IMG/VR virus record: IMGVR_UViG_3300033804_000036
Source of the DNA: a virus
Taxonomy: Duplodnaviria > Heunggongvirae > Uroviricota > Caudoviricetes
Length of the DNA: 64,000 nt
Strand: one strand, 5' to 3'
Each line of letters begins with the position of its first letter. Position 1 is the first letter of the stretch. Below the pieces are notes generated by a model that worked only from the letters and a program-made list of their open reading frames with translations, searched no databases and was not told the DNA's origin. Positions 14,796 to 63,715 of this stretch are shown piece by piece. The translations under genes were made by a program, and so were the position numbers.

Positions 14796-14820
14796 CTCTC
14801 CTTTTTTTATGGGTGAAAGT

Positions 14821-38248: not shown

Positions 38249-39042
38249 CAAAGTTCACGTTTGACAAGTTCAGCTTTGACATCGACAAGTCTTTCCTGAA
38301 GCTTTCACTGCTGCTGGTTGTCAGCGGATCCCATGCTTACGGATGGCCTACTGAAGCAAGCGACTTGGATGTACGCCATGTTTTCGCCCCTGAAATCAGA
38401 CAGGCACTCAGCATATTCTACAAATGCAAGACAGAACAGCGTAAAGAAAAACATGAGGAAGGACTGATTGAATTCACAACCTATCCGATTCAGCCTTTCC
38501 TCGGGCTGCTCGCTAAAGGCAACGGAAACGTGCTGGACAACCTTTTCGAAGCCACAGGACCGCCGCAGCCAGTGCTTTACGTTGACAAACCGAAAGTTGT
38601 GGAATTGCAGAAAATAGTTCTTGATCATCTGCACAAAGGGTTTCTGATGCACTGCACCGGGTACGACACTCATCTGAAGAAAGACATGGAAAACGAGACG
38701 AGGCTAGCGCGGTACGGCAGAGAGAAGCTGCTGCTTAACAGGTACAAGATTCTGCTGGAAGGACTGATCCTCGCCAACTACGGCGAAGTAGTCTACAATC
38801 TCAGGAAACAACACGAATACATAAAGACGCTCTGGTGCATTGAACTACTAGAAGATTACCAAGCAGGCAGGCCGTTTCTCGCGTTTCTCGGCAGAAGAGC
38901 AAACCAAGAAGCAACACTTGAAGTTGAGCAACTGCATAGTCGACTGGTAAAGTTGACGGAAACAATAAAGTGGCCTACCGCAGGGCAAAGCACCATCGAC
39001 GTTCCCTTGGACAGATGGTTAATCAATCACTATCTCCCCTAA
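38245..39042 (+). CDS. Pol-beta-superfamily nucleotidyltransferase
   Basis: VSGSHAYGWPTEASDLDV (GS ... D.D). Substrate unknown. Confidence 0.55.
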   Translation: MTKFTFDKFSFDIDKSFLKLSLLLVVSGSHAYGWPTEASDLDVRHVFAPEIRQALSIFYKCKTEQRKEKHEEGLIEFTTYPIQPFLGLLAKGNGNVLDNLFEATGPPQPVLYVDKPKVVELQKIVLDHLHKGFLMHCTGYDTHLKKDMENETRLARYGREKLLLNRYKILLEGLILANYGEVVYNLRKQHEYIKTLWCIELLEDYQAGRPFLAFLGRRANQEATLEVEQLHSRLVKLTETIKWPTAGQSTIDVPLDRWLINHYLP

Positions 39043-39698: not shown

Positions 39699-39924
39699 GT
39701 GAACCACCATGCGTGAAATGTAAACAAACTATGCCTGAAGAATGGCTGAAACAAAACTGCCCATGCGCGGAAAGAAAGGCTTGGGAAGCTAATCAGGAGA
39801 AAGAAAATGAAGGAAGAAAGAGAAGAAAACATAGACCCTGAAGAAGATGATCCCACAACTGATCTGTTGGCGGAGGAAGAAAATGCCGAACTGCAAAGGC
39901 GCGAATAGTTTCAGGGGTGACAAC

Positions 39925-44735: not shown

Positions 44736-44769
44736 AGGAAAATCGCTGGCTAAGAAAAGAGGAAATGAG

Positions 44770-44841
44770 TCCTCTCACATGGATTCGCACCATGACTTCT
44801 TGGTTTACGGCCAAGTGTGCTAACTACTACACTATGAGAGG
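44770..44841 (-). tRNA. tRNA-Tyr(GTA)
   Basis: Hand fold: acceptor cctctca/tgagagg, T-arm catgg-attcgca-ccatg, anticodon arm cttgg-tttacgg-ccaag (RC loop CCGTAAA). Confidence 0.55.
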
Positions 44842-45224
44842 CTGATTTCGTATTTCAGTCCAAATTTATTCTCGATATAATGTGCGGCATTGCAAACATG
44901 ACACAGCACGTTAAACTCGTTTTTTCGTTGTTCTCGAAGAATACTTCTAAGTAATTGCCAATATCCGTGTGTTTTCTGATCTTTATGTCCTCCGAGGTTA
45001 AGGTGATTGATTTCCAACACGGCGAAGACGGTACATCCACATCTTGCGCATTTTGCTCCGCCGAGGTATTCAAGCACCTTTAACTTCAAATTTTGTTTGG
45101 CTCGGCTGTCTATGATGTGTTGTTTTTCAGGATTTTTCTGTCTCCATTTTTTCACGTAGTCACGATTGAACTCTCTCATATAGGTTCGTCGTTTGTCCTT
45201 GTCTTTGTATCTATCGTGTGGCAT
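44832..45224 (-). CDS. HNH endonuclease
   Basis: CARCGC ... EINHLNLGGH ... CHVCN. Paralog of 48099-48470 and 48850-49263. Its 3' end overlaps the 5' end of tRNA-Tyr. Confidence 0.65.
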   Translation of the reverse strand: MPHDRYKDKDKRRTYMREFNRDYVKKWRQKNPEKQHIIDSRAKQNLKLKVLEYLGGAKCARCGCTVFAVLEINHLNLGGHKDQKTHGYWQLLRSILREQRKNEFNVLCHVCNAAHYIENKFGLKYEISLS

Positions 45225-45258
45225 AACAGATTAATAATATCTGTTATGCTATATACCC

Positions 45259-45828
45259 TTATGCTACGGGGAGTCCTACAACCGAAGTTATGATCCAGAT
45301 CTTGTCAGAAGTTGCCAGTGGCGATGGCACAGTGTACGTTTTAATCCAGAAAGTCACAGTGTAGTCGTCATAGTCGAATTTGCAGCCTGTTTTTTCTTCT
45401 TCGTTCATCTTGACAAAGACATCGTAGAATCGTCTTTGAAGTTCAGGATCGTCTTTAGACGTGACACGCAAAGTTTTGCCAGACGCCAAATGCAGCACAT
45501 TCTTCGCGCAGTTGCGAATGAACCCGTCAATCTTGTCCTTGTTCTTCGCCCGTATCCAACCGCTTTTGAACACTCGACGAACCTGAAGTCGCTTGTCAAC
45601 TTTTGCGAGCAGAAGGCTGATTTCCCCTTCAGCGTTGAACCTTGCAGAAACCAATGTAGGCCGCTGGAACTGTCCTCTACTCTCCTTAACAGGATACATA
45701 GGCGTCACTTCTTCAATGTAAACACCGAACCCGCCAAACAAGTATCTCAGATATTTGGCGTTGTCACTGTACACTAGAAACTTCGTCACCTCCTTGGGCA
45801 AATCCAAACCTTTCGAACTCACTTTCAT
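45259..45828 (-). CDS. Hypothetical protein, 189 aa, in the tRNA array
   Basis: Perfect GGAGGTGA SD before the ATG. Lies between tRNA-Pro and the HNH gene. Possibly a nuclease. Confidence 0.5.
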   Translation of the reverse strand: MKVSSKGLDLPKEVTKFLVYSDNAKYLRYLFGGFGVYIEEVTPMYPVKESRGQFQRPTLVSARFNAEGEISLLLAKVDKRLQVRRVFKSGWIRAKNKDKIDGFIRNCAKNVLHLASGKTLRVTSKDDPELQRRFYDVFVKMNEEEKTGCKFDYDDYTVTFWIKTYTVPSPLATSDKIWIITSVVGLPVA

Positions 45829-45845
45829 TCACCTCCGTATATTAT

Positions 45846-45938
45846 ACCTATGAATGGGGAATAAGGGATTTGAACCCTTGACCACGACGTTTCTTGAGAT
45901 TATCTTCCCAAGCGTCGGATGCTTAGTCCAAGCTACAC
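45846..45938 (-). tRNA. tRNA-Pro(TGG) with a ~16-nt intron
   Basis: Acceptor ggggaat/attcccc, T-arm aaggg-atttgaa-ccctt, anticodon stem CGACG/CGTCG enclosing loop CTTGGG plus intron. Confidence 0.55.
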
Positions 45939-45993
45939 CAATTCCCCACAGATTTTATTATTTTGTGATTTTATTATTTTCTGATTTTATTAT

Positions 45994-46105
45994 TGGCGGA
46001 GCAGCCGGGATTTGAACCCGGGCCGTACGATTACTGCAGACGGAAGTTTGCAACTATTTCTTCCGTCTTAGACAGTCGCACATCCTACCGCTGGACCACT
46101 GCTCC
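45994..46105 (-). tRNA. tRNA-Asp(GTC) with a ~38-nt intron, CCA encoded
   Basis: Acceptor ggagcag/ctgctcc + G + CCA. D-arm GTCC-agcggta-GGAT. Anticodon stem TGCGA/TCGTA. Intron hairpin GACGGAAG ... CTTCCGTC. Confidence 0.6.
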
Positions 46106-46162
46106 CTCGAGCGCGGTTTTCATGTTGTTTTTCCATCTTTTGAATTCCCTCGAGCGCAGAGA

Positions 46163-46234
46163 GGGCCGAGGGCGGGAGTCGAACCCGCATCCCAGGATTC
46201 ACAGACCTGTATCCTACCGTTAGCCTACCTCGGC
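46163..46234 (-). tRNA. tRNA-His(GTG) with G-1 encoded
   Basis: Acceptor GCCGAGG plus an extra 5' G pairing the discriminator C. Loop CTGTGAA. Confidence 0.65.
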
Positions 46235-46342
46235 CACTGTGTATGCCTTGCTGAACCAAGTCAGCTAGGGCTTCGGTCCCAATGGAGTTTTACGCTAGCT
46301 TATCCTAAGCCTTCCTTAATGGTTCTGGCATTTAGGCCACAG

Positions 46343-46415
46343 TGGAGAGGATGGGAATTGAACCCATGATAACGGCCTCTTCAGGACCGCGCCTTCCCTC
46401 TTGGCGACCTCTCCG
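46343..46415 (-). tRNA. tRNA-Phe(GAA)
   Basis: Acceptor ggagagg/cctctcc. Anticodon arm CGGTC-CTGAAGA-GGCCG. Confidence 0.6.
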
Positions 46416-46417
46416 AG

Positions 46418-46490
46418 CGCCGCCCGATGGAGTCGAACCATCACCTTCTGGCTCAACAGGCCAGCGCACTACCATTTATGCTAAGGCGGC
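46418..46490 (-). tRNA. tRNA-Asn(GTT)
   Basis: T-arm gatgg-agtcgaa-ccatc. Anticodon arm ctggc-tcaacag-gccag (RC loop CTGTTGA). Confidence 0.6.
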
Positions 46491-46494
46491 ATAG

Positions 46495-46568
46495 TAGGCG
46501 AGGGGCGACTCGAACGCCCACTACCGACTTATAAGGACGGCGTGCACAGCCACGTACACTACTCGCCC
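46495..46568 (-). tRNA. tRNA, anticodon unresolved (possibly TAT)
   Basis: Clear T-arm gggcg-actcgaa-cgccc and a 7-bp acceptor. The anticodon arm has a mismatch. Confidence 0.4.
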
Positions 46569-46592
46569 ACTTGTGGTGCGTTACGCACCGAG

Positions 46593-46663
46593 TGCACTCG
46601 GCGGGAATTGAACCCGCGTCTCCGCCATGGCAAGGCGACATCTTACCACTGGACCACGAGTGC
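46593..46663 (-). tRNA. tRNA-Gly(GCC)
   Basis: Perfect acceptor gcactcg/cgagtgc. Loop RC TTGCCAT. Confidence 0.55.
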
Positions 46664-46667
46664 TTGG

Positions 46668-46783
46668 GGCCGGTGGAGAGATTTGAACTCTCATCTTGCT
46701 GCTTACTCGGCAGGTACATGCTTACGATCTGCGTAAGGCGCTGCTTACAATGCAGGCGCTCTAACCATTGAAGCTACACCGGC
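46668..46783 (-). tRNA. tRNA-Thr(TGT) with a ~42-nt intron
   Basis: Acceptor gccggtg/caccggc, T-arm gagag-atttgaa-ctctc. Loop ATTGTAA. Internal hairpins. Confidence 0.5.
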
Positions 46784-46787
46784 ACAG

Positions 46788-46861
46788 TGGGGATACTTGG
46801 ATTTGAACCAAGATCAACGGTTCTGGAGACCGCCATGCTAATCCGTTGGCACCATATCCCC
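46788..46861 (-). tRNA. tRNA-Trp(CCA)
   Basis: Acceptor ggggata/tatcccc. Anticodon stem cggt/accg. Loop RC CTCCAGA. Confidence 0.55.
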
Positions 46862-46890
46862 TTTTGCCTCAGAGATTCATCACAGGCGGA

Positions 46891-47038
46891 TAGGCGCGGA
46901 AGGAGTTGAACCTTCGTTAATTGCTTTCTTGGTTCCATGCTGGGGTGTCATCCCTCTTACCACGCCACGTCTACGTTTCCGACTAGCGACCAACACGAAA
47001 CTTGTAAGGCAAATGTCCTACCGTTAGACCACGCGCCT
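46891..47038 (-). tRNA. tRNA-Val(TAC) with a ~77-nt intron
   Basis: Acceptor aggcgcg/cgcgcct, T-arm gaagg-agttgaa-ccttc. Loop CTTACA plus intron. Confidence 0.45.
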
Positions 47039-47045
47039 GCTATGG

Positions 47046-47320
47046 TAGCCCCGGAGAGAATCGAACTCTCGTCATCGGCTTTCTCCAGCGTTATCGGAAG
47101 AGGCTGACACCAGCACGGTTTCTGCGCACCGTACCGCACGCTCCCCAGTACCGACACTTCCTGGGACTTAGGTTAGGCACATACCTCCTTTGCCGACGCA
47201 TCCAAAGGCTTATGCCCTCGTTAAGACACACCTCTTAGTCGCCCACAGAGGATTCTGGTACTACCAGAGCGTCAAAGTCTTTCAGAGGCCGACATCCTTT
47301 TCCAGTTGGACTACGGGGCT
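47046..47320 (-). tRNA. tRNA-Gln(CTG) with a ~200-nt intron
   Basis: 3' half 47047-47079: acceptor agccccg, T-arm gagag-aatcgaa-ctctc, stem TCGGC. 5' half 47281-47320: cggggct acceptor, D-arm GTCC/GGAT, stem GCCGA, loop CTCTGA. Confidence 0.5.
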
Positions 47321-47459
47321 GCGAAACTAGACGCGCTCAACCTCAGGGAACTAACAACGTGCCATAAGGCAAAGGCTCTTTTTGTAGCCACGTTCTGTTG
47401 CCCTGCTTGTACTGGCTACCATCGGATATGTCATCTAGTTTTCTTCAGGCGCGTCGGAG

Positions 47460-47530
47460 TGCAGGATCCGCGAGTTGAACGCGGGTCTTAGCCTTGGAGG
47501 GGCCACGTCCTACCACTAGACTAATCCTGC
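47460..47530 (-). tRNA. tRNA, anticodon uncertain (loop CCUCCAA; Gly-TCC with C33?)
   Basis: Perfect acceptor gcaggat/atcctgc, T-arm ccgcg-agttgaa-cgcgg. Confidence 0.45.
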
Positions 47531-47548
47531 AAGTAGACTGCCTGCAAG

Positions 47549-47620
47549 TAGGCGTGGTCGGGGTTGAACCGACACATACAGCTTATCAGACTGTTGTGCA
47601 GACCAGCTACACCACACGCC
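47549..47620 (-). tRNA. tRNA-Ile(GAT)
   Basis: T-arm gtcgg-ggttgaa-ccgac. Anticodon arm acagc-ttatcag-actgt (RC loop CTGATAA). Confidence 0.55.
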
Positions 47621-47624
47621 CATA

Positions 47625-47771
47625 TACAGAGGAGAGGATTTGAACCTCCGTTCTCAAGGTTTCTCGCATCTCAATCGGCTAGGGATGCACGGCTAGTTCC
47701 TAGCAACCATCTAACGTGCTTCCATGAGATGTTATGAGCCTTGCGGGATAGCCTGACTACCCTACCTCTGT
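47625..47771 (-). tRNA. tRNA-Met(CAT) with a ~72-nt intron and an A1:U72 acceptor
   Basis: Acceptor acagagg/cctctgt. Anticodon stem caagg/ccttg. Loop CTCATAA. Confidence 0.5.
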
Positions 47772-47783
47772 TCGTTATTTTGG

Positions 47784-47929
47784 CGCTGGGTAGCGGATTT
47801 GGACCGCTGGTACCTTTTTGGGGTACATCAGATTTCTGCGGCCTCCATTCGAGTTACGCCCTTGTGAAGCGTTCAAGTCTCGTCTTGCCCATAGCAATCT
47901 GACGCATTAAGCCGCTCTGCCAACCCAGC
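47784..47929 (-). tRNA. tRNA-Ser(GCT), type II, with a ~58-nt intron
   Basis: Acceptor gctgggt/acccagc. Variable-arm hairpin GTACC-ccaaaaa-GGTAC. Anticodon stem TCAGA/TCTGA. Loop TTGCTA. Confidence 0.5.
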
Positions 47930-47947
47930 ACTTATATTTTTTGGTCA

Positions 47948-48108
47948 TAGTGGGGGTGGGATTCGAACCCACGCGTTGGCCCCTACGGGAAGAGGTTTCT
48001 CACAGGCTGAACAGTCGTTCTTAGCCGTCCTTAGCATCGAGCCTACGACTTGAGCTTCGAGCTTTAGTCTTAAGCCTCTCGCTTTCAGCCATGCTTAGCT
48101 ACCCCACT
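47948..48108 (-). tRNA. tRNA-Leu(TAA), type II, with a ~72-nt intron
   Basis: Acceptor agtgggg/ccccact. Variable arm TCCCGTAGGGG. Anticodon stem AGAGG/CCTCT. Loop CTTAAGA. Confidence 0.5.
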
Positions 48109-48470
48109 ACATTGTCTGGCAACCATTTTATGTCCCAATGATCTTCAATACCTCTTAACCTTGTCAAACAATGCCACGCATTGCATACTCTACAGGTTAG
48201 TTCCAGTTCATCTTTGTTTTGTTTTCCGTTCAGTATCGCAAAGTAGAATGCTCTTCGTGTCTGCCACTTCTTCCTTTTATGTCCGCCTCCGTTCTTATGG
48301 TTAATTTCCAAAGCTTCGGATATATCGCAACCACAATACACGCATTTTCCTCCAAGGAAAGCAAGCACGCGTTTTCTGAGCATCCGTCCATATTCGGCTC
48401 TTTGTAGTCTTCTTTTTCTTTGCCATTCTTTTTGATAGACTCTGTTTACTTCTCTATCAGCGTATGGCAT
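48099..48470 (-). CDS. HNH endonuclease
   Basis: CVYCGC ... EINHKNGGGH ... CRVCN. Overlaps the 5' end of tRNA-Leu. Confidence 0.65.
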   Translation of the reverse strand: MPYADREVNRVYQKEWQRKRRLQRAEYGRMLRKRVLAFLGGKCVYCGCDISEALEINHKNGGGHKRKKWQTRRAFYFAILNGKQNKDELELTCRVCNAWHCLTRLRGIEDHWDIKWLPDNVVG

Positions 48471-48520
48471 GAAAGAGGATATGGGTTCGACGGTATTAAG
48501 GTTATTGTTGAACCTTGTGG

Positions 48521-48642
48521 CGGATCCGGCGGGATTTGAACCCGCGAGTGGGAGCTATCCCTGCCCATTGTTTAAGGGGATCAGGCTTAAAGGGTTCAGG
48601 CTTCGCTGTCTCCTGCCTTAGACCTTACTGGGCGACGGATCC
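48521..48642 (-). tRNA. tRNA, intron-containing, anticodon unresolved
   Basis: Perfect acceptor ggatccg/cggatcc, T-arm gcggg-atttgaa-cccgc. Middle contains repeated GGGGATCAGGCTT / GGGTTCAGGCTT. Confidence 0.4.
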
Positions 48643-48650
48643 ATGTTTGG

Positions 48651-48816
48651 CGGGTGCGGAGAGATTTGAACTCTCGATCTGGAGGTTTCTCCAGTTCCTA
48701 ACTTTCGTAGCGTCAGGCTATTTCGGGTAATATCAACCTATCGAAGCATCAGGCTCTCAGAAGCTTCAGGTTTCTTTAGGAACCTCCTGCCTTCTTCCGA
48801 GCTAGGCGACGCACCC
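48651..48816 (-). tRNA. tRNA-Arg(CCT) with a ~90-nt intron
   Basis: Acceptor gggtgcg/cgcaccc. D-arm GCCT/AGGC. Anticodon stem GGAGG/CCTCC. Loop TTCCTAA. Confidence 0.5.
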
Positions 48817-48820
48817 TTGG

Positions 48821-49407
48821 TGGTCCCTCCGGGATTCGGACCCGGCTCGTTAGGTATGAAGTCTGATGTTTCGATATATCGTGGTCCAATTCCACTTCAG
48901 GTACTTCATGCAGAAGTGAACTCCGATGTGACACCAGTAGCATAGACGAACCCATTCGTCTGGTTCTAACAGTGCACGACGGAGTTCCGCTAAGGAATAA
49001 CTATGCTTTTTTCCATCTTTTCTATGGAGACTTAGTCTGTATTTACTGTTATCGCAGAGGATACACTTAGTTCCCCATACGATATCTCTCTGTTTCTTTA
49101 ATGTCTCCTTATACTGTCGTGTGCATTCGTTATTTGCAATTCTACGCTCCTCGAGGTTCTGTTTTTCACGTTTAATAGTAGTTCGCGTTGGAAGACCAAG
49201 TTTTTTCCTCTTGTACCACTCTCGTTGGTAGGTTCGTTTTGTTTCTCTATCTTTGAAAGGCATGAACTACTTATGGTTTTGAACCCTTATTAGTCTTTCG
49301 AACCCATCAGATGTCTTCCGTTCTGGATGAAAGCATCGTCCTCTCGTTGAGAGCCTAACATCCTTAGACGGCAAATTGTGCCTTTGTCCAGAATAGACTA
49401 AGGGACC
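48821..49407 (-). tRNA. tRNA-Glu(CTC) split by a ~490-nt intron enclosing an HNH gene. A second short insertion near the D-arm is possible
   Basis: 3' part 48822-48854: acceptor ggtccct, T-arm ccggg-attcgga-cccgg, stem ttagg. 5' part 49347-49407: stem cctaa, loop CTCTCAA, acceptor agggacc. Confidence 0.45.
48850..49263 (-). CDS. HNH endonuclease inside the putative tRNA-Glu intron
   Basis: CILCDN ... SLHRKDGKKH ... CYWCH. Same strand as the tRNA. Confidence 0.6.
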   Translation of the reverse strand: MPFKDRETKRTYQREWYKRKKLGLPTRTTIKREKQNLEERRIANNECTRQYKETLKKQRDIVWGTKCILCDNSKYRLSLHRKDGKKHSYSLAELRRALLEPDEWVRLCYWCHIGVHFCMKYLKWNWTTIYRNIRLHT

Positions 49408-49411
49408 GAGA

Positions 49412-49484
49412 GCGAGGTGCACGATTTGAACGTGCGAATATCGGTGTTGCGGACCGACGTGTTAACCATACTTCACCAACCCCG
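49412..49484 (-). tRNA. tRNA-Cys(GCA)? (loop CCGCAAC has C33)
   Basis: T-arm gcacg-atttgaa-cgtgc. Anticodon stem tcggt/accga. Confidence 0.45.
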
Positions 49485-49492
49485 CTTGAATT

Positions 49493-49586
49493 GTGGTGGA
49501 AGCTGGCGGATTCGAACCGCCGATCTTCTGCTGTTTTGGGATTGTTGTCCTTGCAAAGCAGTTGCTCTACCTCTGAGCTAAGCCCC
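49493..49586 (-). tRNA. tRNA-Ala(TGC) with a ~19-nt intron, CCA encoded, G3:U70
   Basis: RC reads GGGGGCT-TA-GCTCagaggtaGAGC-A-ACTGC-TTTGCA[intron]A-GCAGA ... GGCGG-TTCGAAT-CCGCC-AGCTTCC-A-CCA. Confidence 0.6.
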
Positions 49587-49780
49587 CATTAAAAACGGAT
49601 GCAAGGGAAATTCAACGTGGACTTAACCGCTTTTACTGGGCGGCTGACGCTTCAGAGTCTTGTGTTTTATGCTGTGGTCTACTCAGGCGGTTTAATCCGC
49701 CCTCCTTACATGAGAAGACTATAGACCCTTGCATGAAACACATTTTCAGTCCACTTAGCTTCAAGAGTGGCAGTTTCATG

Positions 49781-51667: not shown

Positions 51668-52492
51668 CTAGAATCGTTGTCCAGAAGCAACTTGGCCGCA
51701 ATAGTCGCATTGCTGTCCCGAACAGGAGTCACATGTGAAACGGCGGGAGCCTGTTCGTAGCGCAGCCCGCATTTCTCGGATGCATTTTCCAACTTTTTTC
51801 AGTCGTTGCCAAAACTGGATTTCTTCTTCGTTCACCATGGCTTTCAAGTCGTTCTGGTTTATTGACAGGTCAAAGCCGCCGGTTGTAAAGTAGGCGGCTC
51901 TGCTGTACGCGCATCCGCTTCCCAGCATACGCTGGCTTGCAGGCCAAAAGTCGGAAATATCAACTGTTGACGTTATGCTTCCTTCGCCGTAGATGGTTCG
52001 GAGAGCATGAAACAGATCATCGTCTATCCATGCACTACCACTCACGCCTACAACCTGCGGATCCTCGAAATGTCTGAGCAGCAGATTCACAAAGTTTGTG
52101 CCGTAATACGAGTCACCATCCACGGCGACAACGATGTCTCCGTCAACCTGTCGAAGCGCAGTGTCTATAGCCGTGAGTTTTCCGCGTGGAGCAGTGATGA
52201 CCCTGTCAGCCATTTCCTCTGCTACGTCGACTGTTCCATCTGTGCTTTCGCTGTCAACCACGACTATTTCAAAGTTGTCAGGGTAGGCAACGATTATGTT
52301 CTGGTTCCAGAGTGAACATAGAGCTTTTTCAACGTATGCAGCCTCATTCAACGTCGGCATCAACACTGTAACCTTGCCAATCTTACTCATGTCAGCCAAG
52401 CTAGCGTCCGTCACGTTCACCGAATTCGTCATTCGCGAATGCGAAACGGCTAAGCCTGCAAGTGTGCCGAGGGCAAACAGAGCAAGAGACAT
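51668..52492 (-). CDS. Family-2 glycosyltransferase (Dpm1-like) with an N-terminal signal anchor
   Basis: VLMPTLNEAAYVEKAL ... EIVVVDSESTDGT ... VDGDS (DxD). Confidence 0.7.
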   Translation of the reverse strand: MSLALFALGTLAGLAVSHSRMTNSVNVTDASLADMSKIGKVTVLMPTLNEAAYVEKALCSLWNQNIIVAYPDNFEIVVVDSESTDGTVDVAEEMADRVITAPRGKLTAIDTALRQVDGDIVVAVDGDSYYGTNFVNLLLRHFEDPQVVGVSGSAWIDDDLFHALRTIYGEGSITSTVDISDFWPASQRMLGSGCAYSRAAYFTTGGFDLSINQNDLKAMVNEEEIQFWQRLKKVGKCIREMRAALRTGSRRFTCDSCSGQQCDYCGQVASGQRF

Positions 52493-53756: not shown

Positions 53757-54251
53757 ATGCAAGTTGATGTTAACCTCATCATTTCAATCATAGGTGCCCT
53801 TGTCGGGGTAGGCGGCTTCTTATTGGCATACGTCAAATATATTCGGGGCCAAGAAAATAGGATATCGTGTTTAGAAACAAGAAGCCAGGACATCGGCAAA
53901 GACATGGCTGATGTTAAAGGAAAACTTGATTCAATTTTGAAAAGTGAGGAGGATAAGGGAGAAAGGATAAAAGCTCTTGAAACAAAAATGGAGTTGTGGT
54001 GGACGGCTGTGCAGGCAACTGCTATTAAAATGCTGAAACATCCGACTGCACGTCGAAGAGACGAACTGTTGGACAAGTTGGACAGCAAACAGATAACGAT
54101 GGCGGAGATGGAGAAACTGAAAGATCTGTTGAGATGTGACGTGACAAGCAAGAAGAAAGACTCGATTTACGCCGCCATGGTTGTTGCTCGTCTGGACATG
54201 CTGCTCTACGACATGAAAAAAACTGCGGGTTTATCGGGAAATAATCAGTAG
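53757..54251 (+). CDS. Membrane-anchored coiled-coil protein
   Basis: N-terminal TM IISIIGALVGVGGFLLAYV, then heptad-rich. Confidence 0.5.
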   Translation: MQVDVNLIISIIGALVGVGGFLLAYVKYIRGQENRISCLETRSQDIGKDMADVKGKLDSILKSEEDKGERIKALETKMELWWTAVQATAIKMLKHPTARRRDELLDKLDSKQITMAEMEKLKDLLRCDVTSKKKDSIYAAMVVARLDMLLYDMKKTAGLSGNNQ

Positions 54252-55007
54252 AAGGGCAGCGCCGAGGCCGATAGGTATCAGTGTTCCTAAATTCAGTGTA
54301 GGAGGCGGCTCCTGGTAAATGCCTGTTGGCGTAATCACCATGAAGTTGTCGCGGTCGTTTGCAAGCTGTGTTAGAATAGAGTCTGCCATCGAATCTTCCT
54401 GTCCTAGCCAGTAGTTCCACCAGTAATTGTAGCGGTCGATAGTGTCCTGGTAGATTTGCTGCGGAGTCTTGCCCAGAATAGTCGAGTAACCAGTAGCTAA
54501 GCCAGCGTCAAAGAAGGCTTTCGCGTAGGGGTCGTTGAACGTGCATTTTTCGTCAGCCGGCGGATCGTCTGAAGACGGCGGGTTCACGTAGTCAGGATGA
54601 TAATTGAAAGTCCAGTCGGCAGCGTAACCGAAGTAGACTGGACAGGTTTTAGCAACCATGTCAGGCCCAAGGGTTGTAGCCGTGTGACAGGCCCACAGGT
54701 AGCTCGGAATTCCAGACGCAAGGTCGTCGTTTACTCCTGCCTGCAAAAGTATTTCCATGTCCATGCCAGTGAAAACTGTTTCGTTTCCATGTCCCATGCC
54801 GATGAAAAGACTTGGCTTCTTCTCGATTTCAGCCGTGAAAGTTGTTTCTCGCGCTGGCAAAGTGAGATCGTCATTGTAAAGTTCTGTGACATTGTACCCG
54901 TTGTCTTTCGCATATTGAACAAGCTTGGTTCCGAAGGTAGAAAGGTAAGTGCTGGCCGTGTCGAATTCTCCGGCTCTGGAGATGAGCGCTGTTTTAGGCG
55001 TAGCCAT
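54231..55007 (-). CDS. Secreted/surface protein with a C-terminal TM anchor (sorting-signal-like)
   Basis: Ends LGTLIPIGLGAALLLIISR. Contains GHGN and WACH, a possible His/Cys dyad. Confidence 0.45.
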   Translation of the reverse strand: MATPKTALISRAGEFDTASTYLSTFGTKLVQYAKDNGYNVTELYNDDLTLPARETTFTAEIEKKPSLFIGMGHGNETVFTGMDMEILLQAGVNDDLASGIPSYLWACHTATTLGPDMVAKTCPVYFGYAADWTFNYHPDYVNPPSSDDPPADEKCTFNDPYAKAFFDAGLATGYSTILGKTPQQIYQDTIDRYNYWWNYWLGQEDSMADSILTQLANDRDNFMVITPTGIYQEPPPTLNLGTLIPIGLGAALLLIISR

Positions 55008-55301
55008 TTATCCGCCAGCCGAACCGGTTACTGTTGGGTGAAGCTGAGATATTTTGCGGATTTCCATCGCTATCAGTTTTTTGCCTATGTCCGTGAGAGC
55101 TTGGATTTCTCTGATTTGGTCTGCGTAGCTTAACGCTATTTCTTCCATAGTGTCCGGGTCTTGCATGTGCAGCAGGATGTTGTTTAACTGTTCAGACGTC
55201 ATGGTGGCAGCGTTGGCCTGCATTCGTTTAAGCACTAGAGTCTGAAGTTTAGTCCAGTCGACAGAGTCACTGATGTCGCTGACTGTAGGTGCGCTTGCCA
55301 T
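55008..55301 (-). CDS. Hypothetical protein, 97 aa
   Basis: ORF abutting the next gene. Confidence 0.4.
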   Translation of the reverse strand: MASAPTVSDISDSVDWTKLQTLVLKRMQANAATMTSEQLNNILLHMQDPDTMEEIALSYADQIREIQALTDIGKKLIAMEIRKISQLHPTVTGSAGG

Positions 55302-55341: not shown

Positions 55342-55581
55342 CTATTTTGGAGGCACAAGCATGTCAACGATTTGTTTGCCTAAAGCCGAGTTGTTTGTGA
55401 CTTCTCTGATAGCATCGTTGTAACTGAGAAGATCAGTTCCTGAAGGATGCGGTATAGTTGGCAGAGTGCGCAGGTGCTCAGACATGCTTTGAGATTTAGT
55501 TCTTAGAAGCTGAAGGGCAGTATCACGCCGTTGCGAATCTGTTTGAGAACTCATTTTAATCTCCAGTACAGATTGTACCAA
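55342..55581 (-). CDS. Hypothetical protein, 79 aa
   Basis: ORF. Confidence 0.35.
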   Translation of the reverse strand: MVQSVLEIKMSSQTDSQRRDTALQLLRTKSQSMSEHLRTLPTIPHPSGTDLLSYNDAIREVTNNSALGKQIVDMLVPPK

Positions 55582-55647
55582 TCACCTTTTTAAGTTTTTA
55601 CAGCAAAGAAACCTATTGGAGAATCAACGGCGCAGTTGGATGGTTAA

Positions 55648-57996
55648 ATGAGTTCAGCGTACACGATGCTGGAAGCATGCGACGACAATGGAGATGGCGG
55701 CAGTGACGACTCAACGAGTGGGAACAATTGGCTTTCACAGGTTTTCACAACTGGAGCCACAGCACAAATGGTTCGGGCAATCAGAGTGAAGCTTGCGAGG
55801 GGTGCAAGTACATCAGGTAACGTAACAGCCAGCATCCGAGCAACCTCAGGCGGAAAACCAACGGGTTCGGACCTGAACAGCATAACTGGAACTATCCCCA
55901 TCTCGAGTTTATCAACTTCTGCCGCATGGTATTTCATCTATTTCAGTTCGGGAGAATCGCTTTCAGCCAGCACTGCATACGCAGCGGTGTTAAGGGCCGA
56001 CAACATAACCTACTGGTATGACGATGCCTCCAGTTCATATTCAGGCGGAAGCATGTGTTACAGTTCAGACGGTGGAAGCAGTTGGACAAACTCTGGTTTT
56101 CCAACTCAGTTTGAGATTTGGGGAGATCCTCTCGTCATCGCAGAAAGAGCCAGCGTCACCGACAGCTTGCTGAAAAGAAGAGCTTGGGTTCAGCAGTTAG
56201 CGGAAACAATGAAGGCATACGACAATCTTACAATGTACAAGGGCTACCTCTTCAAGTTAAAAGAAACGCTTGCATTCGTCGACTCAGAAACCACATGGAA
56301 AGCACTACAGAAAACATTGACGGAAACACTACGATTCATCGACTCGGAAACTGCACAGAAAGCACTACAGAAAACATTGACGGAAACACTACGATTCATC
56401 GACTCGGAAACTGCACAGAAAGCACTACAGAAAACATTGACGGAAACACTGCCAGTCATCGATAGTTTATCAGCTTCTAGGATAATGTCCAGATCACTGA
56501 ACGAAACGCTGGCGTTCTACGACGCTGAAACAACGTCGAAGGCGACGCAAAAAACACTGACGGAAAATCTGCAATTTATTGATTCTCTAGTTGCTTCCAG
56601 GATTATGTCTCGATCGTTGATTGAAACACTAGGATTCGTCGATTTACTGTCAGCGTCAAAAGCCATACAAAAATCCTTTGTAGAGACGGAAATGCTGGCG
56701 GTTGTCGACAACTTGGTAGCCTCAAGATCAATGACTAGATCACTGAGCGAAACGCTGGCGATGATCGACGGTCTAACTCCGTCAAAGGCAGCGCAGAAAA
56801 CACTGACAGAGACATTGCAACTTGTTGATGTGCTAGCAACATCGAAGGCGGCACAGAGAATGCTGATTGAGACGTTGCAGATCATCGATTTGTCGTCGCC
56901 TGCAAAAGCATTGCAGAGAACGTTGGCGGAAACCACAACCTTCATCGACTCTTTGAGCCTATCAAAGGCTCAACAAAAACTGCTTGCGGAGATCATGTCG
57001 TTTGTCGATGTAGAATCTGCTTCAAAAGCACAACAGAAAACATTAGCGGAAACGCTTCACATCATCGATAGTTTATCAGCTTCTAGGATAATGTCCAGAT
57101 CACTGAACGAAACGCTGGCGTTCTACGACGCTGAAACAACGTCGAAGGCCGCTCAGAAAACTCTAACCGAAACACTGGCATTCATCGATAACTTAGCGTC
57201 CTCAAGGATAATGAGCCGATCATTGAGCGAGACGCTGGCGTTCTACGACGCTGAGACAACATCGAAGGCGGCGCAAAAAACACTGACGGAAACACTTCTT
57301 TTAATTGACAGCTCGGTAACGTCGAAAGCACTGCAAAAAACACTATCGGAAATGCTTGTGCTTTACGATATATTCTCAGCAAGTCGCGCCTTAAGAAATC
57401 TAGTGGTGCTGATCGAAACACTACCGTTTGTTGATACTCTGACTCTGATGAAAGCGACACAGAAAACACTGACAGAGACAGTTGTGCTCTACGACATAGG
57501 AATAACGTCGAAGGCGATACAGAGAATGCTAGCCGAGATGTTGCAACCCCAAGATGTGCTGTCACAACTCAGAGCCATGCAGAGACTGCTGACAGAAACA
57601 CTGCAAATTACCGACATCTTGTCACCCGCGAAAGCGTTGCAGAAGACTTTGACGGAGACACTGCCAGTTTATGATGCCCTGATACAAAGCAAAGCACTTC
57701 AAAAAACGTTAACGGAAACATTCCAGATATATGACGCTCTTCTGAAAGGACTGCCGAAGACTATAACGATACTACTTGCGGAGAGTCTGCCATTTTATGA
57801 TTCGCTGTTTATACCCCATTACGGCATCGTCATATCAGTTCTTCTGAAAGAAGCTCTGACCATCGCTGACATGTACAGCGCTATTTATTACGAAGGATGC
57901 TTAGACTATAATTACATGGTGAGCGTTTTCAACATGCTTAGTCAGTTGGCAGGCGGAAAATCCATCGCAAGAGAACTGGAGCGGAGAGATCCTTGA
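55648..57996 (+). CDS. Large repeat protein (782 aa) with ~35 imperfect 20-aa repeats (fiber/surface-like)
   Basis: Repeats TLxETLxFxDxLxxSKAxQK. The N-terminal 200 aa are non-repetitive and Ser/Gly-rich. Confidence 0.6.
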   Translation: MSSAYTMLEACDDNGDGGSDDSTSGNNWLSQVFTTGATAQMVRAIRVKLARGASTSGNVTASIRATSGGKPTGSDLNSITGTIPISSLSTSAAWYFIYFSSGESLSASTAYAAVLRADNITYWYDDASSSYSGGSMCYSSDGGSSWTNSGFPTQFEIWGDPLVIAERASVTDSLLKRRAWVQQLAETMKAYDNLTMYKGYLFKLKETLAFVDSETTWKALQKTLTETLRFIDSETAQKALQKTLTETLRFIDSETAQKALQKTLTETLPVIDSLSASRIMSRSLNETLAFYDAETTSKATQKTLTENLQFIDSLVASRIMSRSLIETLGFVDLLSASKAIQKSFVETEMLAVVDNLVASRSMTRSLSETLAMIDGLTPSKAAQKTLTETLQLVDVLATSKAAQRMLIETLQIIDLSSPAKALQRTLAETTTFIDSLSLSKAQQKLLAEIMSFVDVESASKAQQKTLAETLHIIDSLSASRIMSRSLNETLAFYDAETTSKAAQKTLTETLAFIDNLASSRIMSRSLSETLAFYDAETTSKAAQKTLTETLLLIDSSVTSKALQKTLSEMLVLYDIFSASRALRNLVVLIETLPFVDTLTLMKATQKTLTETVVLYDIGITSKAIQRMLAEMLQPQDVLSQLRAMQRLLTETLQITDILSPAKALQKTLTETLPVYDALIQSKALQKTLTETFQIYDALLKGLPKTITILLAESLPFYDSLFIPHYGIVISVLLKEALTIADMYSAIYYEGCLDYNYMVSVFNMLSQLAGGKSIARELERRDP
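56250..57800 (+). repeat. Imperfect 60-bp tandem repeat array inside the repeat-protein gene
   Basis: Recurrent acattgacggaaacactacgattcatcgactcggaaactgcacagaaagcactacagaaa units. Confidence 0.7.
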
Positions 57997-58117: not shown

Positions 58118-59194
58118 ATGAAGAAAATCGTGCTAACTTGTTCTGATTTTGATTTTGAAAAATTAAAAAAGCAGAAAGCATCTGACGGGTTTGCAGCGGC
58201 AACATGGGAGAAATGGCTGCTTAGCAAAGGCTCTTCTGGTTTAGAATTGACTGAAACTGAGCAATGCCATATCGGAACAAAAACTATGCATACGTTGTGG
58301 TGGAAAAACATCGGACACAACCTTGCATATATCAGGCGGAAAGACACTAGAAGCTTACGGCAGCTTGCCAAAATCAAATCGGAAGGCCCAGCAGTTGTTG
58401 TCGGGGCTGGACCGAGTGTGTGGCAGCATAAGCATCTTGATGTGTTGAAAAACAGCGGTTATAGAGGAATTGTCGTCGCATGCGATAAAATGCTGAAACC
58501 TCTGCTGGAACATGGAATCGTCCCGAACTATGTTATGACGGTTGACGGGACAGAACTCATAATTCCCTTCTACAAGAACAAAGCGTTCAGAGAACATGTA
58601 AAAGACATAAAAGTGCTGTTGCATTTCACGGCAAACCCGAAGCTTGTAAGATATCTTTACCGGCTTAAAGCAGACATTTACTGGTTTATCATTCATACAG
58701 AAATGATCTTAACGCCGGAAGATGCGGCGATGCAGTCTGTCTGTATGACCATGACAAAACACAACCCAGATGGCTTGCAAACAATTGTTTCAGGCGGAAA
58801 CGTCGGCGTTGGAGCATGGGCATTCAGTTGGGTGGTATTGAAAGCGAACCCTGTTATTTTAATTGGATATGACATGGGATATCCTGAAGGAACAAACCTT
58901 CACACAACCTATTATTACAGCGCGTTAATGAATAAAACTCAGGAACAGATAGCTGACTCGACAGCGGCGTCGCTTACAGTAGCTACACAATACCAGAAAG
59001 AGTATAATCCTGCCTTCAAATGTTGGGCGTACACCGACGTTGTTTTTCGACAGTATAAAGCAATTTTCGGTTCGTTTCTTTCCCATTCACCGGCAAACGT
59101 TACTACCATCAACTGTACTGAAGGCGGGACCCTGCATCATCCCAGACTTCAACATGCAACACTGGCTGAAACACTAAAAAAATACAGGGTTTAG
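58118..59194 (+). CDS. DUF115 / MAF_flag10-like protein (nonulosonic-acid glycosylation accessory factor)
   Basis: AVVVGAGPSV ... GIVVACDKMLKPLLEHGIVPNYVMTVD resembles DUF115/MptE-like. Confidence 0.5.
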   Translation: MKKIVLTCSDFDFEKLKKQKASDGFAAATWEKWLLSKGSSGLELTETEQCHIGTKTMHTLWWKNIGHNLAYIRRKDTRSLRQLAKIKSEGPAVVVGAGPSVWQHKHLDVLKNSGYRGIVVACDKMLKPLLEHGIVPNYVMTVDGTELIIPFYKNKAFREHVKDIKVLLHFTANPKLVRYLYRLKADIYWFIIHTEMILTPEDAAMQSVCMTMTKHNPDGLQTIVSGGNVGVGAWAFSWVVLKANPVILIGYDMGYPEGTNLHTTYYYSALMNKTQEQIADSTAASLTVATQYQKEYNPAFKCWAYTDVVFRQYKAIFGSFLSHSPANVTTINCTEGGTLHHPRLQHATLAETLKKYRV

Positions 59195-61005: not shown

Positions 61006-61662
61006 TTATTCTGCAGGTTTTATAAAAGTTTGCTCGGTGCCGTTGGAAAGCAGTTTCCGAGTTTCCTGTGCGCCTATGCAGAACAGAGCATCAAGAATGG
61101 ACAGGTCCTTCTCGAACGGGCCGTCAGTCAACTGTTTATAGACTGGATGAACAAACACTTCACGAAGAGGTTCACCGTTCAGTTTATCCATTAAAACAGG
61201 AATCGCTCGCGAAACAGACCAGGATGTAAACTGGGTTTTCGTATAGAAAGGTTGCACGTGTTTGCCCATCAGTTCAGCAGCCCACATTGTTGTCTGCAGG
61301 TTTAACGGTTCGAGGAGAACATTGGGAGATTCAATGTAATATTTGATTTCGTCAAAATAGTCTCTGAAGAAAGGCGCTTTACTGTAGTCCAGTTCTATTG
61401 ACTTGAGAAAGTTCTTCCGCCAGTTTTGAAGGTTGTCAATCACCATTTCGCAGAGTGGTTTGTTGCAGGGTCTTTTCACGGCAACTGCTAACTGCTGAAT
61501 TCCCGATTCTGTTTTAACCCGGCATCTGCTCTGTCTGCTGCGGGGAAGGAAAATGGCGTGGTCAACTACAACCCATATGTTAGAGTGTAGAAGCCCGAAG
61601 AAAAAATCCATTGGAGGAAAGAATTCGGGCGCATGAAAAAACAGTATGTTACTTATGCCCAA
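61006..61662 (-). CDS. WbqC-like family protein
   Basis: PEFFPPMDFFFGLLHSNIWVVVDHAIFLPRSRQSRCRVK resembles WbqC. Confidence 0.5.
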   Translation of the reverse strand: MGISNILFFHAPEFFPPMDFFFGLLHSNIWVVVDHAIFLPRSRQSRCRVKTESGIQQLAVAVKRPCNKPLCEMVIDNLQNWRKNFLKSIELDYSKAPFFRDYFDEIKYYIESPNVLLEPLNLQTTMWAAELMGKHVQPFYTKTQFTSWSVSRAIPVLMDKLNGEPLREVFVHPVYKQLTDGPFEKDLSILDALFCIGAQETRKLLSNGTEQTFIKPAE

Positions 61663-62599
61663 GGGTCAGAGCCTTCCTGCGAAGGTTGTCATCCAACGGG
61701 ATGCTGTCCAAGATTGCAGCGATACGTTTTGAACCGCCGGTCACTGTTGCAGGAACATTCAAACCCTTGTTACGTGATCCTATCTGCACATGCTTCTGTT
61801 CATCGTCAATTGTCGGCAGTTCATAATAGAAACTGCTGCTGTTGCCAATGGCCCGTCGACAATTCTTCAGCAGACTGAAAAACTGTGGTCTAGGCAAATT
61901 GGCTGTAATCACCTTCACATACTGGCCAGAATATGATTTGCCCGGGTCTTCAGCTTCATATTCCATTTTTAATCGGTTGAGGTATTCGTCTATTATCTCG
62001 TGGTTCCTGTCTTTGTTGCCTGCAACCCAGACGACGAGAGGGGAAGTTTCAATAGTTTTCAATGTTTCTTCAAGGTCTTTCCTCGTGTTTTCCTCCGACA
62101 CAGGGTCAGGGTGCAGAACGACCAGGTCAAACGGTTCGTTAGGCGTGATAGAATCGTCTAGTACGATACCGTCAAACGCTGTGGAGCCGACGACAAAGAT
62201 TCTCCAGCATTCCTCTCCCAACGCCATAAGGTTCAACTTGTGTTCAGGCATATTGCAAAACATGATGTGGCTGAAACAGGAAATAACTCGCCGATTGATG
62301 TCGTCAGGATGGTTAGCCATGTTGTTGCCCGCGTGAAAATGACACACTACGTAACCCTGATGGAAAGCTCGGGCGGCCACATAGGTGATTTCAAACCTGT
62401 CGCACGGAACAACAACTATGTCAGGCTTGAAATAACGCAGGTAAGCGTCAAAGCCGCTGACAACCTCTGGAACAGCATCCGTAGCATCATAGAAAAACCA
62501 TTTAGCATCCACAGTTCCGAGACTTTTCAACTCAGCCATCACAGGCTCAAGCAAACCACGCTCAGCCCTATCAGACGACACAACAAGTATCTTTCTCAT
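61649..62599 (-). CDS. neuC: UDP-N-acetylglucosamine 2-epimerase (hydrolysing), NeuC-like
   Basis: KILVVSSDRAERGLLEPV ... VVCHFHAGNNM ... ISCFSHIMF. Confidence 0.6.
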   Translation of the reverse strand: MRKILVVSSDRAERGLLEPVMAELKSLGTVDAKWFFYDATDAVPEVVSGFDAYLRYFKPDIVVVPCDRFEITYVAARAFHQGYVVCHFHAGNNMANHPDDINRRVISCFSHIMFCNMPEHKLNLMALGEECWRIFVVGSTAFDGIVLDDSITPNEPFDLVVLHPDPVSEENTRKDLEETLKTIETSPLVVWVAGNKDRNHEIIDEYLNRLKMEYEAEDPGKSYSGQYVKVITANLPRPQFFSLLKNCRRAIGNSSSFYYELPTIDDEQKHVQIGSRNKGLNVPATVTGGSKRIAAILDSIPLDDNLRRKALTLGHK

Positions 62600-62899: not shown

Positions 62900-63715
62900 C
62901 TAGATGCGCGTGCGCTGAATACGCTCTATGAGTCCCACTTGCTTAATAAAAGTTGCCAGTTCATCAAACGTAATTGACACGGCCGCGTCGATTGGCGGTG
63001 GTTCATCCTCGATTTTGCCTGTTTTGTCAATGGTAAATGATGCATTGATAGTGTGCGCGGGAGGAAATCGAACGTGTTTTTCCAAGTAAACTTCCTTATG
63101 AACATGGTTGATGGCGAAAGCCAAATCGAAAAGAGTGTGTGGAAAATGGCTGCTGAAACCTTTACAAACGCATGCCCGTTCAAGGTTGAAGTCTTCAGGT
63201 TCAGGCGGATACTTTGGAATGCAATACATCATGAAAACGCGGGCGTTGTACGCTAGCATCGGGTCTATCGGAAGTTTCTGGAGGCTTATCAGCACAGGTT
63301 TTCCCGTGTCCATCGCCTTGTCAATGAGAGGTTTGTTTTCATTGTCTTTGAATCGAATCTTGATAGCATCCGCATATTTGTTGGCGATGTTAACAGCTTC
63401 CAGATACATCGGCGTAAGTACAAACTTCAATCCAAGTCGAGAGGCATGCTCATGGAGGTCAGCCACATTCTGCTCGGTAAGAATCAATTTTTGTAGTCGA
63501 CTTCGCAGTGGAGATTCTTTAATAACATCTTCATTGAAAAGCTGAAACTTTACACCCCATGCCCCTGCTTCCTTAGAAGCGAAAATCATCTGCTGTGCAA
63601 CATCTAACGGGTAGTCTGGCTTTTCCCAGTTAACCCCAATCTCCGCCACTACATGGCAGGGCAAAGTTTCTCTACTTCCCTTGATCGCTGGACCCAGCGA
63701 TAATATGCGGGCCAA
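62900..63715 (-). CDS. neuB: N-acetylneuraminate (nonulosonic acid) synthase, NeuB-like
   Basis: VVAEIGVNWEKPDYPLDVAQQMIFASKEAGAWGVKFQLF. TTG start. Confidence 0.7.
   Translation of the reverse strand: MARILSLGPAIKGSRETLPCHVVAEIGVNWEKPDYPLDVAQQMIFASKEAGAWGVKFQLFNEDVIKESPLRSRLQKLILTEQNVADLHEHASRLGLKFVLTPMYLEAVNIANKYADAIKIRFKDNENKPLIDKAMDTGKPVLISLQKLPIDPMLAYNARVFMMYCIPKYPPEPEDFNLERACVCKGFSSHFPHTLFDLAFAINHVHKEVYLEKHVRFPPAHTINASFTIDKTGKIEDEPPPIDAAVSITFDELATFIKQVGLIERIQRTRI

Follow-up and report, generated by a model that had tools for sequence, protein, structure and literature searches.

What kind of protein is built largely from a diverged 20-residue repeat, and what would a tailed phage use it for? 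This question is raised by a gene at positions 55648-57996 of a 64,000-nucleotide stretch of viral DNA (IMG/VR record IMGVR_UViG_3300033804_000036, Caudoviricetes), the whole of which is called the window in this work. The open reading frame (ORF) called there on the plus strand starts with ATG and encodes 782 amino acids (aa), which agrees exactly in coordinates and length with a first-pass annotation made from the DNA alone; both strings quoted in that annotation, TETLRFIDSETAQKALQK and SETLAFYDAETTSKAAQK, occur in the protein. We propose that the gene probably encodes a structural virion fibre of a large uncultivated tailed phage. Its product is composed of three parts, namely a ~160-residue N-terminal lectin-like beta-sandwich, 29 diverged 20-residue repeats, and a 32-residue C-terminal tail, which are laid out as follows:

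55648..57996 (+), complete coding sequence: N-terminal beta-sandwich, 29-unit repeat stalk, and short C-terminal tail; start aligned with the N-termini of relatives
55699..56121 (+), lectin-like beta-sandwich of the choice-of-anchor R type (aa 18-158), which would form the ligand-binding head
56137..57897 (+), 29 diverged copies of a 20-residue (60-bp) unit (aa 164-750), putative stalk of the fibre
56274..56462 (+), the one stretch in which tandem DNA copies are near-perfect (3.2 x 60 bp at 93% matches, with two identical units)
57898..57993 (+), C-terminal tail outside the repeats (aa 751-782, CLDYNYMVSVFNMLSQLAGGKSIARELERRDP), which by inference would serve in anchoring or oligomerisation

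Genomic contexts of related proteins

Relatives with the same repeat or the same layout are located in phage structural gene blocks in all 10 viral contexts examined; an eleventh context, L013, is cellular. In six of the viral contexts (L002/L003, L004, L006, L009, L010, and L011), the relatives are encoded between the genes for the major capsid protein (MCP) and the adaptor or connector, while in L005, L007, and L008 they end blocks of very large tail-like proteins. The SU10-like phages of L002 and L011 are among these contexts. P0009 is found between SU10-type MCP and adaptor genes, P0006 between cement/capsid genes and those for tail completion, tube, and tape measure, and P0002 four small genes past the MCP gene, while P0001, P0008, and P0012 stand at the end of blocks of very large tail-like proteins. 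Three further relatives share the full layout of the window protein: P0198 lies a few genes past the MCP gene, P0254 just past the adaptor gene, and P0188 between the two. Such gene order in six of ten related phages suggests a head or neck position of the fibre, with a tail position as the alternative.

A single close fragment, the metagenomic sequence P0026, shares the C-terminal tail, being 62% identical over aa 674-782 and almost identical in the last 40 residues. Other relatives end differently, and the short relatives P0144, P0082, and P0164 share a basic C-terminus of their own (RWRWL-x-A-x-RNL-x-RPRCPRPS-x-REQ-x-KIDDG) that is unrelated to the tail of the window protein. These differing C-termini suggest lineage-specific anchoring segments.

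The protein had been placed by the first-pass annotation in a broad class of receptor-binding fibres, S-layer proteins, and adhesins. The fibre/adhesin part of this class is upheld by the contexts, 10 of 11 of which are phage structural blocks, and by an N-terminal domain resembling lectins and carbohydrate-binding modules (CBMs); the S-layer or cell-surface part is not. No signal peptide or transmembrane (TM) segment was detected in the window protein, which has a maximum 19-residue hydropathy of 1.47 and no N-terminal hydrophobic segment, whereas the cellular relatives P0014 and P0070 reach 2.6-2.7 and have both a signal peptide and a C-terminal TM anchor. The window protein would therefore be assembled in the cytoplasm, as a virion protein would be.

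The N-terminal domain

Residues 18-158 match the NCBIfam model NF041539 (choice-of-anchor R) at profile positions 8-153 of 155, with 38.4 bits against a cutoff of 30 (E 1.2e-9). With a score above the curated cutoff and 146 of 155 positions covered, the domain belongs to this family. The first-pass description of a Gly/Ser-rich region is right as to composition (Ser 19%, Gly 11%), but the segment is a conserved, folded domain and not a low-complexity one. A profile search with it returned 342 homologues at E<=1e-5, many of them stand-alone proteins of ~175 aa; 8 residues are invariant across 113 aligned sequences, and 23 in a ten-sequence alignment. AlphaFold2 (AF2), run with the 113-sequence alignment, predicts a beta-sandwich with a predicted local distance difference test score (pLDDT) above 90, and on this model the domain is a lectin/CBM-like beta-sandwich. 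Assignment to DUF4082 (PF13313) was considered and rejected: no Pfam family matches the window protein at E<=0.01, and the DUF4082 matches in relatives fall on adjoining domains, not on the segment homologous to the N-terminal domain.

The predicted fold is common to phage baseplate, tail-spike, and capsid-accessory proteins and to cellular adhesins. BFVD contains 51 viral proteins that match the domain at E<=1e-3; tail and minor tail proteins, VriC/VrlC, and DUF4815 proteins are among them. Comparable lectin/CBM-like beta-sandwiches are found in the DUF4815 baseplate protein of phi812 (9euf_0), the tail spike gp29 of Bxb1, and VriC/VrlC-type proteins. These modular receptor-binding and baseplate proteins differ from the window protein in having only 10-20% sequence identity and another domain order, and none is known to carry an 18- or 20-residue L-x-E-x-L-x-hydrophobic-x-D repeat.

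The domain is also found in cells. On a 737-kb contig flanked by housekeeping genes, it tips the N-terminus of a 1,573-aa surface protein of the Ig/PKD/cadherin type, so that a cellular member of the choice-of-anchor R family shows the same order as the window protein, with the N-terminal domain followed by a long repetitive region of extracellular type. The cellular members examined have export signals and Ig, PKD, or cadherin repeats; in contrast, the window protein lacks an export signal, has the 20-residue repeat in place of theirs, and is encoded in a phage genome. A genome scan with the domain placed 12 of 13 loci (L014-L026) in metagenome-assembled genomes of Chloroflexota (Dehalococcoidia and Chloroflexia), and many metagenomic homologues come from subsurface or marine sediment. 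This concentration in Chloroflexota is a possible clue to the host of the window's phage (GC 46%).

Two genes for stand-alone versions of the domain were examined, of which one is located in a phage block and the other in a cellular, archaeal-like neighbourhood. The latter (L013, 8001-8699) has as neighbours a PaREP1 (archaeal) gene, metabolic genes, and a gene for a beta-helix protein, so that the distribution of the domain extends beyond bacteria and their phages.

The repeat array and its family

The 20-residue repeat described in the first-pass annotation is real, but its count of ~35 was too high: 29 head-to-tail units occupy aa 164-750, mostly of 20 aa, with one of 17 and five of 22. When the protein is compared with itself at lag 20, the identity is 0.388, whereas 2000 shuffles give 0.084 +/- 0.011 (z = 26.9); for the DNA, an identity of 0.485 at lag 60 stands out from ~0.24 at lags 57-63. 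The units share the consensus Q-K-T-L-T-E-T-L-x-F-I-D-S-L-S-A-S-K-A-L. In the 21 units that are cleanly phased, L4, E6, and D12 never vary, and positions 9, 13, 16, and 20 vary most. Ser and Thr together make up 22% of the stalk.

At the DNA level, the 60-bp register expected from the first-pass annotation holds, but the copies are mostly degenerate, with a mean unit-to-unit identity of 54%. Tandem Repeats Finder, which had been proposed as a check, detects no more than 3.2 copies (56274-56462, 93% matches), and a single pair of units is identical (56308-56367 and 56368-56427). A 120-bp perfect duplication and three copies of ~150 nt, 84% and 78% identical to the reference copy, are located in the gene. 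Different codons are used in 57% of the codon pairs that encode the same residue. Because the DNA copies have diverged and their codons differ, the array appears old and conserved at the protein level rather than a fresh product of slippage. The invariance of L4, E6, and D12 despite 57% synonymous codon differences indicates, as judged from sequence comparison, an ancient array kept by purifying selection. The segment at 56274..56462 is plausibly a recent duplication and the only plausible slippage site in the gene. Several ORFs of 70-140 aa in other frames or antisense lie inside the array (56244-56459(-), 56517-56945(-), 57182-57565(-), and 56118-56465(+)) and are themselves repetitive; they are most simply explained as by-products of the periodic codon composition and not as genes.

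Within the unit, Pro is confined to positions 9, 10, and 16, and close relatives have Gly at position 9 in most units, which fits a unit made of a helix and a linker. The hydrophobicity spectrum of the array contains harmonics of 20 only (5.0, 4.0, 3.33, and 2.86). Little power is seen at 2.0-2.2, which argues against simple beta alternation, and the spectrum is not cleanly helical either. A relative with an 18-residue period has its hydrophobicity peak at 3.58 residues. The occurrence of the same core in 18- and 20-residue versions would argue for discrete elements joined by loops, not for a continuous helix.

An exhaustive search with the whole protein gave 3,984 cluster representatives at E<=1e-3 (916 at E<=1e-10) that match the N-terminal domain, the array, or both; the clusters, formed at 50% protein identity, derive mostly from metagenomes of sediment and the subsurface. 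A hidden Markov model of the unit proved too insensitive for a census, and the core motif, hydrophobic-x-E/D-x-hydrophobic-x-x-x-D/E, was counted instead with a shuffle control. Arrays of this motif were found in 130 of 278 retrieved proteins and in 2 of the shuffles, with a modal period of 20 residues in 84 of the array proteins and 18 in 37. Family arrays range from 3 to ~78 units (median 14), and the short relatives P0032, P0033, P0040, and P0144 have the layout of the window protein with only ~5-10 units. The array is located in the C-terminal half in 86% of family members, preceded by a median of ~530 residues. The N-terminal partners in relatives are binding modules, namely LamG_3, DUF2341, Kelch propellers, Ig, fn3, and lectin-like domains. 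No model of the repeat exists in Pfam or NCBIfam, and PHROG gave only families of unknown function, below significance. The repeat, with its core L-x-E-x-L-x-hydrophobic-x-D and period of 18 or 20, is a large uncatalogued phage repeat family that has no solved structure.

The proposed fibre and its orientation

In the proposed fibre, several chains, probably three, would associate along the repeats into a long rod, each unit forming one structural rung or helix-linker element. Depending on the fold, such a rod would measure from ~140 A, with a rung of 4.8 A per unit, to ~880 A, as a continuous helix. The rod would be held together by the hydrophobic positions 4, 8, 10/11, 19, and 20, and the invariant Glu6 and Asp12 may pair with conserved Lys/Arg at positions 2 and 18. 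The short C-terminal tail would fix the rod to the particle, while the N-terminal beta-sandwich at the free end would bind a glycan of the host surface and so widen the capture radius for reversible adsorption. The distal placement of the N-terminal domain is favoured because relatives swap binding modules at the N-terminus and because the same domain tips a cellular adhesin.

Among known systems, the head fibre gp8.5 of phi29 (PDB 3QC7; Xiang & Rossmann 2011, as cited in PMC6542822) is the closest working analogue. Its gene, like those of the closest relatives of the window protein, comes after the major capsid gene, and its stem can be compared with the helices of ~15-20 residues, broken at the invariant I-D-S position, that AF2 predicts here with modest confidence. 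The N-terminal domain of gp8.5 consists of two small beta-barrels, whereas that of the window protein is a lectin/PHR-like sandwich; the window array is 3.5x longer, and the trimer is, in our case, a proposal. Membership in the gp8.5 family was rejected (BLASTP E 1.2, hhalign probability 0.1%). With no sequence or profile similarity between them, the relation is therefore one of analogy only. A tape-measure protein was likewise rejected as an identity for the window protein, given that L004 has a separate tape-measure protein (PF06791) beside its repeat protein and that a globular N-terminal domain of the binding type is present.

Several findings weigh against the assignment to a virion fibre. 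The first concerns the stalk, for which the first-pass annotation had asked whether structure prediction would give a beta-helix or a coiled coil; AF2 leans towards helices, with modest confidence. The full-length model, built from a 16-sequence alignment, has a mean pLDDT of 36, with 20-30 in the array, which makes the array model unusable. Low confidence of this kind can occur with obligate oligomers, though the alignment comprised 16 sequences only. In a second model, the units form helices of ~15-20 residues at a pLDDT of 55-72, which are interrupted at positions 9-13 (x-F-I-D-S) in the first four units and fuse into longer ones beyond. The models thus lean towards a helix-linker fold without fixing the choice between it and a beta-solenoid, and they are models of the monomer only, so that the oligomeric state is an assumption of ours. 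In addition, no experimentally characterised homologue was found, the protein having no PDB sequence relative at E<=1 and no Pfam family. The N-terminal domain, being found also in cellular genes, is no viral marker in itself. The orientation that we infer from cellular relatives, with the N-terminus distal, is the reverse of the one seen in classical tail fibres and in phi29 gp8.5. Finally, a search of the window within ~8 kb of the gene revealed no recognisable capsid or tail gene; the gene is flanked by small ORFs of unknown function and by genes of sugar metabolism, and the window position is therefore not informative on the role.

The question of orientation gives rise to the main rival, in which the fibre is the same but its polarity is reversed: the N-terminal domain would be the capsid-bound base, likened to a decoration protein or to the N-terminal beta-barrel base of phi29 gp8.5, with the repeat rod directed outward and the C-terminal tail at the tip. 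We consider this arrangement rather unlikely, although several observations speak for it. The N-terminal domain is the most conserved part of the protein and often a stand-alone protein of ~175 aa, one such being encoded in a phage structural block. Its fold matches include capsid accessory, cement, and decoration proteins (cyanophage A4 9jwb_Z, PBCV-1 P1v1, Carin1, and KHP40). Relatives directly follow the MCP gene, as gp8.5 does in phi29, and in gp8.5, according to PMC6542822, the N-terminal base binds the capsid and the C-terminal part is a helix-turn-helix stem. These similarities are outweighed by others. The same domain, a member of a family of extracellular domains, tips a cellular protein of the adhesin type, and it resembles the receptor-binding parts of baseplate and tail-spike proteins as well. 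Relatives that share only the repeat carry LamG, Kelch, or DUF2341 modules in its place, which argues for the N-terminus as the variable, ligand-binding end, while the C-terminal tails vary by lineage, as would be expected of a particle-specific anchor.

Phage fibres set host range and first contact with the cell. Apart from its repeat family, the host clue, and the adjacent sugar genes, the fibre proposed here is an ordinary type of phage structural protein: a modular fibre with a lectin-like head is of a known kind, and what is new is the repeat scaffold and a possible link to glycosylation. With one such stalk solved, thousands of phage proteins now called 'hypothetical' could be annotated, and a new fibre architecture would be gained. 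The Chloroflexota clue, seen in 12 of 13 loci, bears on phages that have almost no cultured representatives.

The neighbouring sugar genes

The gene is surrounded by a sugar-modification island, the nearest member of which lies 122 bp downstream on the same strand, with no terminator-like site in between; the region 5' of the repeat gene is a divergent one:

55582..55647 (+), divergent intergenic region 5' of the gene; sigma70-like and Shine-Dalgarno-like consensus matches only
58118..59194 (+), MptE/Maf (PseD-like) protein of the nonulosonic-acid-transferase type; PF01973 4.6e-23, PseD-like 58.6 bits, domain level only

The upstream region contains a weak sigma70-like match (55597-55624) and a GGATGG Shine-Dalgarno-like motif, which as consensus matches are no evidence of function. 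The genes of the island (51668-52492(-), 58118-59194(+), 61006-61662(-), 61649-62599(-), and 62900-63715(-)) encode a GT2 glycosyltransferase, the Maf/MptE (PseD-like) transferase, a WbqC-like protein, a NeuC-like UDP-GlcNAc 2-epimerase, and a NeuB-family synthase. GT2 lies upstream of the repeat gene, and the WbqC-like, NeuC-like, and NeuB-like genes lie downstream. By its gene content, the island looks like a pathway for a nonulosonic acid (sialic, pseudaminic, or legionaminic acid), though the scores are all far below the equivalog cutoffs (PseD-like 58.6 bits against 670, NeuB-like 49 against 399, and NeuC-like 135 against 236). No CMP-sugar synthetase was seen in the window, which ends at 64000 inside the sugar cluster.

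This neighbourhood is the basis for a different reading, in which the protein would not be structural but tied to the sugar cluster, for example as a Maf-glycosylated scaffold or carrier, or as a protein that is released at lysis and binds host glycans. The gene does sit in a glycan island (GT2, Maf/PseD-like, WbqC-like, NeuC-like, and NeuB-like) and not in a recognisable structural module. However, every homologue context on a viral contig is a structural module, and it is not obvious what a conserved rod of 587 residues would do in an enzyme pathway. The common scattering of structural genes in large phages also counts against this reading, which we regard as decidedly improbable.

If the protein is a virion fibre, it might itself be modified. 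In that case, it would be a substrate of the phage's own Maf/PseD-like transferase, fed by the adjoining NeuB/NeuC/WbqC-like pathway, with the Ser/Thr residues of the stalk being decorated; this idea, prompted by gene adjacency, is appealing but quite unlikely to be correct as it stands. A comparable arrangement is known from Maf/PseD flagellin glycosylation, in which, as here, a Ser/Thr-rich filament protein is encoded beside a Maf/PseD-like transferase and NeuB/NeuC-like genes. The two cases differ in that the sugar-gene matches in the window are below equivalog cutoffs and are not accompanied by a CMP-sugar synthetase, and a substrate role of the fibre is hypothetical. Glycosylation of virion proteins by phage-encoded enzymes is described for mycobacteriophages (Freeman et al. 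2023, as cited in PMC12619734). A search of the available literature on phage-encoded nonulosonic-acid pathways gave nothing relevant. Glycosyltransferase or sugar-nucleotide genes are located <=10 kb from relatives in 5 of 10 viral contexts (L002/3, L006, L007, L010, and L011) as well as in the window, a frequency for which there is no baseline.

If the fibre were indeed such a substrate, the virion would carry a fibre coated in sialic-acid-like sugars, that is, a nine-carbon sugar on a new repeat scaffold, and a general connection of the repeat family with virion glycosylation would explain the sugar genes beside relatives in five other phage contexts. The adjacency of a Maf-like transferase and a sialic-acid-type cluster offers a testable case of virion glycosylation in a large phage. 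Sugar-type genes found inside or beside the structural modules of relatives include those for glycosyltransferase, acetyltransferase, methyltransferase, Wzy-like, and NDP-sugar functions.

Variability of the array and the question of a cellular origin

The array had also been described in the first-pass annotation as prone to recombination and as typical of hypervariable targets. The former claim is weakly supported: most units are 60-75% identical in DNA, and near-perfect tandem copies in the gene amount to only ~190 bp, but array length varies from 3 to ~78 units among family members, and it therefore changes over evolutionary time. Array length would thus be an evolvable parameter and not a rapidly switching one. 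The claim of a hypervariable target is not supported: the window has neither a second copy of the gene nor a template repeat, the array has no inverted copy, and the ORFs scanned, which did not include every small ORF, contain no reverse transcriptase. In particular, a search for a template repeat of a diversity-generating retroelement found no similar DNA elsewhere in the 64-kb window (best E 0.13 over 28 nt).

A locus that varies rapidly by repeat slippage, by site-specific inversion of the PhiCh1 type, or through a diversity-generating retroelement is highly improbable. Its basis would be the 120-bp perfect duplication, the three ~150-nt copies, and a tblastn match to the repeat region of the tail-fibre gene of PhiCh1, which is switched by the Int1 invertase. 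That match (28-32% over ~120-137 aa) was the only one in a collection of deposited phages. The Natrialba phage PhiCh1 resembles the window in that its Int1-invertible genes gp34/gp36 also represent a fibre gene with clustered short direct repeats; homology was rejected, as the match is antisense to the annotated coding sequence and represents a compositional or repeat artefact. No invertase turned up among the ORFs scanned, the window contains no inverted second copy, and the two systems are unrelated. Moreover, the gene has no inverted repeats, no recombinase was found among the scanned ORFs, and units that are on average 54% identical in DNA, with many synonymous differences, point to an old and stable array. 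Comparison between strains, which had been suggested as a check, found no material: an exact-protein look-up did not return the same protein, a scan of IMG/VR proteins gave no close relative, and neither a metagenome scan with the conserved C-terminus nor exact 32-nt anchors in viral and metagenome contigs revealed the same or a close locus.

A bacterial chromosomal protein of the cell surface, S-layer, or adhesin type is hardly credible, for although the family of the N-terminal domain occurs in Chloroflexota surface proteins, and the relatives P0014 and P0070 have an export signal and an anchor, the window protein has neither of these. The window itself has a tRNA array and the hallmark content of a phage, and none of the genes scanned in it is a housekeeping gene.

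The surrounding genome

The window is a genome of the large-phage type. Its phage content includes NAMPT (phrog_448, 8e-162), an HtrA-like protease (phrog_11383, 4e-88), phrog_200 (1e-40), and 12 tRNAs; the best relatives of the NAMPT are encoded in phages of 150-640 kb, and a megablast of 24 kb found no DNA match among deposited phages. Auxiliary and replication genes of the jumbo-phage type, all on the plus strand (39847-41301, 38245-39042, 3099-4106, 14809-15759, 21431-22288, and 8810-10483), encode NAMPT, an RlaP-like nucleotidyltransferase, an ATP-dependent DNA ligase, an HtrA-like PDZ protease, an SPFH/Band-7 protein, and an AAA ATPase.

Upstream of the repeat gene and transcribed divergently from it are the gene at 54231-55007 (-) and the small ORFs 55008-55301 and 55342-55581. 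The former encodes a 258-aa protein without a family match, which has a GHGN motif; its hydrophobic C-terminal segment, PPPTLNLGTLIPIGLGAALLLIISR, resembles in sequence a membrane anchor or a sorting tail.

A cluster of 11 tRNA genes occupies 44769-49587 on the minus strand, where local GC reaches up to 0.54 at 46-48 kb. Two tRNA-Cys(GCA), of which one is 94 nt long, are found in the cluster, as are two tRNA-Ile and two tRNA-Gly species. A separate tRNA-Tyr call, with the unusual anticodon ATA, is located at 36796-36872.

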